Made by a program: the position numbers. A DNA stretch of 64,000 bases from the NCBI RefSeq assembly GCF_003018115.1, contig NZ_CP027457.1; one strand, given 5' to 3'. This document shows, piece after piece, positions 36,001 through 39,000 of the stretch. The first letter of the stretch is position 1; each line of letters opens with the position of its first letter. Source of the stretch: Escherichia coli. Lineage in GTDB: Bacteria; Pseudomonadota; Gammaproteobacteria; Enterobacterales; Enterobacteriaceae.

Positions 36001-39000
36001 ACCCGTGGGACCGCAAGGAGAGGCGGGTATTCAGGGGCCTGCTGGTCCTGCGGGCCCGCGAGGTGAAACCGGAGCCAGAGGCGAAAAAGTAGAGCCGGGA
36101 GATCCCGGAGGACCTCCGGGACCAAAAGGTGACACTGGCCCCAGAGGGGAGCCGGGGCCTCAGGGCCCGGCAGGTCCGAGGGGACCTGCCGGAGAGAGAG
36201 GGCCGCAAGGATTGCAGGGTGTGGCAGGGGAGAGAGGCGATACAGGTCCGGCTGGTCCACAGGGCGCTACCGGCCCCAGAGGACCACAAGGGGAAAAAGG
36301 GGATAAAGGTGACCCCGGCCCGGCAGGCCCTGCCGGTGAGCGGGGGCCGAAAGGTGATACCGGGCCGACGGGTCCCGCAGGGAAGGATGGCGCAGATTCA
36401 CAGGCGAACAGAGTGCGTATCAGCGAGAAAACAGAAGTCACCTCCAGTACAGTCGTTTTCCCCTCTTTTTATGGCGGTGCGCAGGGGGAAAATGCAGCCC
36501 CTAATGGCGCTGTGATTCTGAATATCAGGACGGCTCCGGTATCACTGACGAACGGCAATTTAGGGGCAGCCAGTGTCACTGCTGTCACTTACGGCTTCCT
36601 TCAGGTTCATGATGGCAGCCAGTGGGTTACGGTGAAACATGAATAACATGATTTTCCCGGGTGCGGAAAGCTTAAACGGGTACCCCGTCCTGAATATTCG
36701 CATGAGGAGAAGAAATGAATCTTAAAAATCTGCAACGTTATACTCCTGAGAAGTCGGATGTTCCGGGGGCAATGTACCTGAAGGCAGAGGATGGCCGTGA
36801 CTGGTATGAAAGCCAGTCGTCATTTAAGGCGGATACGCTGAAGCTGGTTTATGACAGCGAAGGCATAATCACGAGTATCAGTAAGGATGTGTCGATGCTG
36901 TGGCCAGTGGGACAGAGTGTGGTGGAGGTTGAGGATACAGAAGAAAACCGCAAAGCTGATATCTCCGGGCGCTGGAAGTTTGACGGGGAAAAAGTCGTTG
37001 ATACTCTGACCGCGGAGAAAGCGCGCGGGATGAAGGGCGATGAAATAAACGCGTGGCGTAATGCGATGGAGGCGGCGAACTACACGTTTGAGCACAATGG
37101 CCGGAAATGGGACTACGGAAAGTCAACGCAGACGCGCCTTGAGCCATCGGTGGCGGCAGCGAAAGCGGGGAAACTGCCGGAGGCGTTTTTCTGGACGGAT
37201 GCGGAAAACAATGATGTACAGGTGACAGCAGAAGAGCTTATTGCGCTGAGTGAAGCGGCAGAGCAGGCGATGTTCAGCAAAGGGATGGAAATCCACATTC
37301 GCCAGCGCACCATGAAGAAGGACCTGGAATCGCTGAGCAGTGCGGATGAGATCCTGGTATACAGGGTTGGCTGGGCACAGGAATAACAGACAAAAAGATG
37401 GGGGACCATCACCTCCCCCATGAACTGCGTTGATTATGTCATTATTGTGAAGATATACACTATGCCGGGTAAATAGTGCCACGGAAAAGTTAATTCCGGA
37501 AGTGACGGAACTCTCATTTTTCGTGCATCCTGTTGATATGGATGATTTTTCAGATTTTCGGAAGTCCGTATTTTTTCCCAGACATTTTGAAGCGTTTGCT
37601 TAATGAACGTATGTGCAGGCTCTTTATCTACGGCTCTTAAAATTGAGAGTCTATCATTGCTGGAGCCTGTGACAATTACGTCCAGGAAGAACTGCATAAC
37701 CTGGATGATTTACGCTCAATCAGAGAGAGGGCGATTAGCGGCAATCACGCTTGATAAAATTAACCCCAGTGATCATCCGGGGTTTTGCAATCATTAAAAC
37801 CGCATCAACCGTTCTACCAGTTGTTCTTTACGGGCAACGATCCAGTCGTGTTGCTCCAGATAAAAACCGTTCCAGAGTGCATACCATCGCATCGGCGGGG
37901 ATTTTTTCCGTGAATTCGACCTGCCCGTGTTTATCGAGGTGGATCAGTAATGCGTATCCATCATTTTGGGTTGGGGGGGTTTGTGCTGCTGGTGGCTGTT
38001 TTTGGCTGAAATAACAGTCTTCGAGTTTTTCGAACACTTCCCACGCCTGAACGGTTTCCAGCATTTTTGCGTGGCGTGCTGCTCCGCGTTCTGTCCATAG
38101 GGTGAGGGGCGGGCTTTGGGAGATATGGGGTTTTGTGACTTACTTAAAGTAAGTCGCAAATTTTTTAATTCTTCACCCGATGCTTTAAAAAAGTGCTTTC
38201 CTTCGACAAAACGCTCTTTGTTTCTGGTGAAGTTAACCTAGATATTCAGAATTTCGGTGCCATAAAGCTGCACCAAAAGTTCGGTGGTAATAACAGGAAT
38301 CTGGTTATGGGTGAACGGGGAGATGGTTTCAACAGAGATTTGAGTTGTCATAATGACGCCCTCTAGTGGTTTCTAAACTATCACCACCGTAAGGTTCCAA
38401 TCATCGGGTGGTGAGACGCACAGGGTTGGAACTACCGGGAAACCGACCGGCGAGCGTTTCAGCTCCCCCAGGCGCCCCACCATAATTCAGATGTACGCGT
38501 GCATACGACAATAAAAAACACGCTCGCGGTGTATGTCTGTCGCGGTCTCTAACCGGGGTTCCAATCCCGACAACTGATTTTGCGGTTGCGCGGGGAATAT
38601 GGCCCCGGAGGACAAAAACTGTCAATGGGCAAAAATTTTCGTTATCAGGAATGTATAAAATTAATTCAATTGAGCAAAAAATCCTTTCTGCAAAACTAAA
38701 AAAGATTTCAATAAAATCAGACAGTTAAAAACACTAAAAAACGGTATAAAAAAGTACCTCAAAATCCTGTTTTTTCTTTCAGATACAATGCCTTATTGCA
38801 TTTTTTAAAACCTGCCAGTGTGGTACATGGATATCGATACCACCGCCAATTATAAGCTAGGCGGTGCACAGCAACACGATAGCGTACGCCTCGATCCGTG
38901 GGTGTTTATGTTCTCAGCAGGATATCGTTTTTAATTCCGCACAAAAACGACCCCGTAATATACGGGGTCAATAAGGACATGGTATAAAGGGTATTATTTC

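Follow-up and report, generated by a model that had tools for sequence, protein, structure and literature searches.

The attR side of a lambdoid prophage in ompW of Escherichia coli, with a decayed antirepressor cassette

Lambda-like prophages integrated in the ompW gene of Escherichia coli ("PPompW") were described by Nakamura et al. (2021, PMC8112680). They have attL and attR sequences of 121 bp, and their attP was sequenced from excised circles. In the same work a prophage was assigned to PPompW when its integrase matched that of O145:H28 strain 112648 with identity and coverage both >90%, and prophage-in-prophage and tandem arrangements at ompW were reported. Here we analyzed the right end of an ompW prophage in a stretch of 64,000 nucleotides (nt) of E. 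coli DNA (assembly GCF_003018115.1, contig NZ_CP027457.1), which is called the window in this text. The feature at 37387-38934 is the ordinary attR-side junction of a common, published E. coli prophage in ompW. The integration site is already known from the literature, and NCBI already annotates a pseudogene and an ompW fragment at this place. The right boundary of a very common prophage is correctly marked here, which matters little as a finding of a genome scan. The only part with some residual interest is an un-annotated RNA leader, together with the specificity classes of such leaders.

The DNA to the left of the junction resembles other known systems. In the immI region of P1 and P7, C4 RNA represses the antirepressor operon. 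The c4/icd/ant genes of these phages were reportedly the subject of studies by Citron and Schuster in 1990 and by Heinrich and colleagues in 1995. In Gifsy-1, transcription past the IsrK terminator yields an mRNA that is translationally silent, and the short IsrK activates it in trans (Hershko-Shalev et al. 2016, PMC4825925). The Rfam families C4 (RF01695) and c4-a1b1 (RF03163) derive from the work of Weinberg et al. 2010 (PMC2864571).

Annotation was read from NZ_CP027462.1 (E. coli 07-4299), to which the window is 100% identical on the reverse strand (record position = 2525476 - window position). Locus L002 is the early region of the 07-4299 prophage through attL, outside the window. We conclude with high confidence that 37387-38934 is the attR side of a ~52.5-kb PPompW lambdoid prophage with a decayed antirepressor cassette. 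Judged from its sequence, membership of the prophage in PPompW is very likely. A preliminary description, made from the window alone, had reported only broken reading frames between the last tail gene (named tfa there) and a copy of the ompW 3′ end. A broken ORF6N frame is indeed present, but the same DNA also contains a promoter with two RNA genes, part of a DinI-like gene and an attP arm.

The right junction and its partner at attL

We searched the whole window with the full K-12 ompW gene by BLAST. Only nt 514-639 of 639 matched, at 38809-38934 (97.6% identity, E = 1e-57), and nt 1-513 had no match anywhere in the window. The same segment is annotated by PGAP as a partial OmpW coding sequence on the + strand, "incomplete, missing N-terminus". 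Collinearity with K-12 ompW-yciE-yciF-yciG-trpA starts at 38809 and covers 2468 bp at 98.3% identity. Together with the broken ORF6N frame, this makes the described feature real and well beyond chance. This bears out the earlier claim of a 117-bp copy of the ompW 3′ end without an upstream body, since the in-frame fragment is 117 nt long (38818-38934). Identity with attL begins slightly earlier, at 38816. Counted from there, the displaced native 3′ end of ompW is 119 bp long (38816-38934, +) and contains the codons for VWYMDIDTTANYKLGGAQQHDSVRLDPWVFMFSAGYRF plus the stop. It is the host's own ompW 3′ end, displaced. No tRNA was found at the junction; the only tRNAs of the window are at 3942-4103.

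The other end of the prophage lies ~13.6 kb before window position 1 on the 07-4299 chromosome. There, ompW is an open reading frame (ORF) of 217 amino acids (aa; record 2538986-2539639, L002 18987-19640). It adjoins the gene for an Arm-domain tyrosine integrase (int, 376 aa), which is followed by the excisionase gene (xis). After int and xis comes a lambdoid early region with exonuclease, dicB, cI/cro-like, O/P-like and ninG-like genes and Q. From core to core the prophage measures ~52.5 kb. The locus is thus split in the manner that marks PPompW, with a partial ompW by yciE and an intact ompW by the integrase. An intact ompW at attL outside the window had been predicted, with an integrase to be looked for next to it, and both were located on the same chromosome. 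The gene is intact in the sense that its reading frame is open, but it is a chimera whose last codons are phage-derived.

Alignment of attL, attR and the K-12 attB gave a 28-bp core, CAGTGTGGTACATGGATATCGATACCAC (window 38816-38843), which is identical in all three. It contains the inverted repeat GTGGTA-N12-TACCAC. To the left of the core is AT-rich phage DNA at attR and the ompW body at attL. To the right is a native, K-12-like ompW end at attR and a diverged, phage-borne ompW end at attL. These 28 bp are perfectly identical and their flanks are swapped between attL and attR; the crossover must lie inside 38816-38843. In prophage-free K-12, ompW is uninterrupted, carries the same core a single time and has yciE directly after it. 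The window has a single copy of the core, on the + strand, with none on the - strand, and no second att core or hybrid att was found. Integration into the ompW 3′ end had been proposed before, and the attL partner, the common core and the empty K-12 site were all found. A contiguous full ompW is absent from the junction, and a matching core is present at the other prophage end.

The phage entered ompW at its 3′ end through site-specific recombination by its integrase, with the exchange within the 28-bp core, and the native last 119 bp of ompW were stranded at attR ahead of yciE. The phage brings a diverged copy of the ompW 3′ end, and ompW therefore stays open at attL. In the resulting chimeric OmpW, the C-terminal ANYKLGGAQQHDSV is replaced by the phage-encoded AKYKSDGRKLAKGSYSDNV, and the protein has 217 aa in comparison to 212 aa for the native one. 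From the barrel topology, we take the exchanged C-terminal part to be the last surface loop. Lysogens of this variant would then display an OmpW with a different and longer last surface loop, and lysogeny may alter an OmpW surface epitope or receptor.

The attP phage arm on the side away from int occupies 38626-38815. It is AT-rich (27% GC) and 91% identical to the equivalent arm of other ompW prophages. A putative arm-type integrase site, TTCTGCAAAACT, lies in this arm at 38686-38697. The 10-mer TCTGCAAAAC has one copy in the attR arm, at the same place, and three tandem copies just past the stop of the phage-borne ompW at attL. Arm-type integrase sites would be expected to show such a distribution, and we infer that the repeats have this role. 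The prophage is predicted to be competent for excision.

Several features are shared with lambda attP and with phage integration into gene 3′ ends in general: int is oriented towards att, three tandem arm repeats stand against fewer on the other side, the arms are AT-rich, and a phage-borne replacement 3′ end keeps the target gene intact. The site differs from that of lambda in that its target is a protein-coding gene, not an intergenic site or a tRNA gene, and in that the core and arms are unrelated. Between ompW and yciE, a hairpin terminator at 38948-38970 belongs to host DNA outside the prophage, within the K-12-collinear block. On the other side, host DNA immediately beyond attL, between ompW and yciC (L002 19880-19969), has a piece of a YkgJ-family gene that PGAP annotates as partial. 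Sequences derived from ykgJ are reported to serve as secondary attB sites within prophages (PMC8112680).

Of 5426 complete E. coli genomes, 1728 (32%) carry the integrase gene at ≥90% identity. Matches over ≥80% of its length occur in 1720 genomes, and every best match is ≥90% identical. Carriers include O157:H7, O103:H2, O111, O121 and ST131 strains. The attR-side arm stands beside the ompW fragment in 488 genomes. The exact right-end variant is found in 67 genomes, at 98.9-100% identity among the matches listed. Among isolated phage genomes, no record covers more than 43% of the right-end region, and the only matches are to the RNA leader plus the 5′ half of ORF6N (79-84%), in Stx-phage antirepressor modules.

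Like PPompW, this prophage is inserted in the ompW 3′ end, has an att duplication derived from ompW, carries int by attL, shows a lambda-like gene order and has a widespread integrase. Two properties of its gene content differ. The late genes here are all annotated as intact, whereas the published examples are defective, and no type III effector gene is annotated from the tail genes to attR.

Several observations weigh against our reading of the right end. The 121-bp duplicated att that is a hallmark of PPompW is not present, as only 28 bp are identical. The rest of att (~90 bp) has diverged between attL and attR and includes a 15-nt indel, the phage-borne ompW end being 15 nt longer, and the whole region is ~75% identical. 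In the RNA leader, the c4-a1b1 hit (38550-38602, -), which overlaps the IsrK-like RNA, scores 38.6 bits and stays below its Rfam gathering score of 46.7 bits. The fold energy of the leader is also not unusual in comparison to shuffles (z = -1.48). With attL/attR identity over 28 bp and not over the published 121 bp, this phage carries a variant attP. For the ompW integrase, the crossover region shrinks with this variant from the 121 bp of the published att to 28 bp with an inverted repeat.

An IsrK/C4-type RNA leader and its specificity classes

On the - strand, next to the attP arm, a sigma-70-type promoter lies at 38596-38625 (TTGACA, 18-nt spacer, CATATT; 10/12 consensus matches). An IsrK-like small RNA or leader follows at 38513-38589 (-), starting 7 nt downstream of the -10 element. 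It matches RF01394 over model positions 1-77 of 77 with 60.4 bits (E = 1e-12; gathering score 50 bits) and has a U-tract terminator. Next is a C4 antisense-RNA-like element at 38404-38487 (-), which matches RF01695 over model positions 1-87 of 87 with 61.6 bits (E = 1e-11; gathering score 45 bits). Neither RNA gene is annotated in NZ_CP027462.1. The a1 loop UUGGAAC (38558-38564, -) is within the IsrK-like RNA and the a′ segment GUUCCAA (38426-38432, -) within the C4-like RNA. The a2 target UUGGAAC (38394-38400, -) is upstream of the ORF6N ribosome-binding site (RBS) AGAGGGCG at 38357-38364. Complementarity among a1, a′ and a2 is perfect in this module. An upstream ORF of 36 codons (38373-38483, -) overlaps the C4-like RNA and ends 21 nt before the ORF6N ATG. 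This 36-aa ORF has no Pfam hit, and its counterparts range from 14 to 76 codons among modules, which makes its coding status uncertain. Translation is not claimed here.

The predicted minimum-energy fold pairs a1, in the middle hairpin of IsrK, with a′ in C4, like the inactive structure A of Gifsy-1. As the fold energy is not significant, support for the pairing comes from covariation instead. The conserved terminator sequence was scanned against viral contigs, which gave 120 loci, and 41 distinct modules, including that of the window, formed the covariation set. In the a1:a′ helix, 99.8% of cells were paired, with compensatory changes in 5/14 pairs. In the a′:a2 helix, the corresponding values were 99.7% and 5/7. 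For either helix, 0 of 500 shuffles reached the observed covariation score. When the partner was slid by 1-3 columns as a control, ≤61% of cells were paired. The covariation is three-way in the leaders of lambdoid and Stx phages (L012-L133), where a1 equals a2 and a′ is complementary to both.

At least six specificity classes can be told apart among the modules: UUGGCGU, UUAGGAAC, UUGGAAC, UUGAGAC, UUCGAAC and UUGGCAU. The module of the window is of class UUGGAAC. Two modules (L023 and L096) are mixed-class recombinants. Such co-varying classes in Stx and lambdoid phages could bear on cross-talk between prophages and on the induction of toxin phages.

The early region of this prophage contains a second, intact IsrK/C4/ORF6N module with a 183-aa ORF6N, beside hokD/sok (L002 8197-8987, record 2528196-2528986). 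Its specificity is UUGAGAC/GUCUCAA. The 07-4299 genome contains only these two modules. As the early-region module is of the other class, one prophage holds two mutually orthogonal modules, and the right-end RNAs are left without a matched resident target.

By its layout, the right-end leader is of the IsrK type, with its own predicted promoter and what looks like a read-through operon containing a short ORF and an antirepressor-like gene. The order of promoter, IsrK with terminator, short ORF and antirepressor-like gene is the same as in Gifsy-1 isrK-orf45-anrP (PMC4825925). Further likenesses are the Rfam isrK match above threshold and the prediction that the middle hairpin of IsrK pairs over a long range with the 3′ portion of the short ORF. 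In contrast to Gifsy-1, the right-end module adjoins attP at the prophage end and not a Q-like antiterminator. Its antirepressor gene is a pseudogene, its upstream ORF has 36 codons compared with 45 for orf45, the positional counterpart, and no isrJ was detected here.

P1/P7 immI shares with this locus a C4-type RNA in the antirepressor leader, with targets upstream (a1) and downstream before the RBS (a2). In both, a few co-varying bases set the specificity, as between P1 and P7. In contrast to immI, no icd-like gene is present here, and no convincing P1-like b/b′ pairing was identified by inspection of the alignment. The protein here is a 187-aa ORF6N and not Ant1/2, and the prophage is lambdoid, not a plasmid.

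By analogy with these systems, a regulatory mechanism can be proposed for the intact relatives. Pairing of a1 with a′ in the leader would hold the mRNA translationally silent. Through a-type pairings, both in cis and in trans, the small RNAs would decide as a class-specific switch whether the antirepressor is made. The antirepressor would then counteract the prophage repressor or promote late gene expression.

The leader differs from its surroundings in origin. The segment 38352-38566, from a1 through a2, is 93-100% identical to the Stx1c phage phiSTEC1589 and only 48-66% identical to the PPompW orthologue. Its flanks show the reverse pattern and are closer to the PPompW orthologue. From this mosaic, the RNA segment looks recently imported by recombination from a phiSTEC1589-like module. 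The promoter carries a change of its own. The first base of the -10 element is T>C relative to the TATATT of all other modules in which a -10 was located, except that of strain W24, where it is also changed. This change would be expected to weaken the promoter, and transcription of the cassette is probably reduced.

We considered whether the promoter still fires and the UUGGAAC/GUUCCAA RNAs act as an orphan trans regulator, giving immunity or anti-immunity on incoming or co-resident phages with antirepressor leaders of that specificity. This would concern residual function only and is compatible with a decayed cassette at attR. IsrK and C4 are both full-length and above their Rfam thresholds, a1, a′ and a2 are perfectly complementary, and the -35 element is a perfect TTGACA. 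The segment is nearly that of phiSTEC1589, whose antirepressor is intact (221 aa), and trans action of short IsrK has been demonstrated in Gifsy-1 (PMC4825925). However, the -10 change was observed in the lineage of the pseudogene alone (the window and W24), and the segment is apparently a recent recombinant, so that its intactness need not mean selection. The sole other module of the host is of class UUGAGAC, which leaves no cognate resident target. On balance we regard this as unlikely. A broader form of the idea is slightly more doubtful still. Here the decayed cassette would be an RNA-only determinant of cross-immunity or cross-induction on class-matched phages such as phiSTEC1589, and the classes would be shuffled between phages by recombination in the conserved flanks.

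The decayed antirepressor cassette

Read as a whole, the right-end "b-region", from the last tail gene to the att arm, contains a leftward antirepressor cassette of the P1 immI/Gifsy-1 isrK type. Its order is promoter, IsrK-like leader (a1, terminator), C4-like RNA (a′), a2 with RBS, ORF6N and DinI-like gene. Intact ORF6N genes of 186-187 aa lie behind the same arm and promoter in other ompW prophages (L005-L008, L135, L137 and L138), and L137 also has an intact DinI-like gene downstream of ORF6N. Since intact orthologues share this arm, promoter and position, we take the cassette as native to the ompW prophage family and not as a foreign remnant.

In the window, only ~35 C-terminal codons of the DinI-like gene remain (37574-37684, -), its C-terminal third, and the N-terminus is missing. 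The DNA is 75% identical (E = 2e-16) to the intact gene, and the translation GSSNDRLSILRAVDKEPAHTFIKQTLQNVWEK aligns with SASNDGLTILRAVDKENAQKFIQETLQEVWET of an intact DinI-like gene at the same position in strain 135. In STEC17-190, PGAP annotates this DNA as a DinI-like gene that is partial, and there is a weak PHROG match to DinI (E = 0.011). A full-length DinI-like ORF was not found here. An 87-aa ORF around this fragment (37434-37697, -) has no Pfam hit and was rejected as a gene, being a fortuitous frame.

The ORF6N cassette and the DinI fragment might instead be the remnant of an older, different ompW prophage, left by tandem integration and subsequent deletion. The region is mosaic, with fragments that have different best matches, and tandem and prophage-in-prophage arrangements at ompW are documented (PMC8112680). 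Nevertheless, the window has a single core, and from the tail genes to 38816 it contains no hybrid att. The 21-bp attB-in-PP_1 of PPompW (GTCATGCAGTTAAAGTGGCGG) has 0 matches in the window with ≤3 mismatches allowed. Intact orthologues are also present in the exact position in at least seven other ompW prophages. An older remnant is thus very improbable, and a native, decaying cassette is the preferred reading.

The antirepressor gene itself (ORF6N, KilA-N clan) is at 37794-38351 (-) and is annotated by PGAP as a pseudogene, "frameshifted; internal stop". Three-frame translation runs through frame 0, a TAG, frame 0, frame 2 and again frame 0. We compared it with an intact 187-aa orthologue. 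The first lesion is a CAG>TAG change at 38238-38240 (codon 38), the second is a 1-nt deletion between 38108 and 38109, and the third is a 5-nt deletion at 37865/37866. The gene therefore has no full-length open frame, as the TAG is accompanied by frameshifts of -1 and -5. The repaired translation matches Pfam ORF6N (PF10543) with 70.7 bits (E = 1.3e-19; cut-off 27.8 bits) and the PHROG "anti-repressor" family phrog_2379 (E = 5.5e-82). Intact relatives of 186-187 aa have up to 88% identity to the repaired protein, and the closest are at the same site beside yciE. An ORF6N/KilA-N-like gene with one stop and one frameshift had been described; domain and stop agree with our result, but there are two frameshifts.

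Both the TAG and the 1-nt deletion are also found in the genome of W24, which is independent and from another continent, and so is the -10 change. This genome is without the 5-nt deletion and has a 1-nt insertion of its own. Because the lesions are partly common to W24 and partly private, they are real and accumulated stepwise. No antirepressor can be made from this gene in this strain. The protein part of the cassette is dead, with a nonsense codon, two frameshifts and a truncated DinI-like gene, and the RNA segment is intact in sequence. It is hardly credible that the gene is intact and that its stop and frameshifts stem from errors of sequencing or assembly: the 1-nt deletion is in a C-run, a typical context of long-read errors, but the TAG is a substitution, a 5-nt deletion is no homopolymer error, the TAG and the 1-nt deletion recur in the independent W24 assembly, ORF6N is marked as a pseudogene in both annotations opened (07-4299 and W24), and 67 genomes carry the variant.

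Further features of the cassette and the prophage

Inside the ORF6N coding sequence, an inverted repeat with a 13-bp stem is followed by TTTTTTAATT (window 38132-38160, +). The repeat is kept in intact orthologues, and a related one (GCGACT...AGTCGC) is found in the early-region copy. It may terminate rightward transcription or bind a protein. Just past the ORF6N stop, a terminator-like hairpin at 37762-37784 (-), AACCCCGGATGATCACTGGGGTT followed by AATTTTATCA, is a consensus match only.

Other ompW prophages have variant cassettes. In L136 (1685-2514) and L009 (3176-3874), the same promoter and IsrK/C4 leader precede ash and Rha-family genes. Over its 3′ third, the Rha gene has 89-91% identity to window 37684-38005, thus the ORF6N-type and Rha-type antirepressors here have a common C-terminal module. 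In L005 (6580-6826), and also in L006-L008, the intact ORF6N is followed by another C4-like segment and by a stump of 29 codons from a further ORF6N start, as if part of the cassette had been duplicated in tandem. In L005-L008, a 262-aa alpha/beta-hydrolase gene follows the ORF6N stump.

The last late gene, the tfa of the preliminary description, is a tail-fibre/tail-fibre-assembly-like gene at 36715-37386 (+), whose product PGAP annotates as a DUF4376 protein. It matches phrog_11571 "tail fiber protein" (E = 3e-144), and its N-terminus matches phrog_136 "tail fiber assembly". The spacer after it (37387-37574) travels with the gene, being 92-99% identical downstream of DUF4376 in lambdoid prophages at other sites, for example in the prophage at potB of strain N51. 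A consensus scan placed a terminator-like hairpin in this spacer at 37397-37421, with the T-run on the - strand.

From the tRNA pair to the lysis genes, no toxin gene is annotated, and the stretch contains an ORF named "TolA", a methyltransferase pseudogene, an HTH-domain gene and a SASA-family esterase. The tRNA pair itself (3942-4103) is downstream of the Q gene and was called Met-CAT and Arg-TCG by ARAGORN; PGAP names the first tRNA-Ile. Also downstream of Q, at ~4912-5124, is a match to the small RNA STnc100 with 172 bits.

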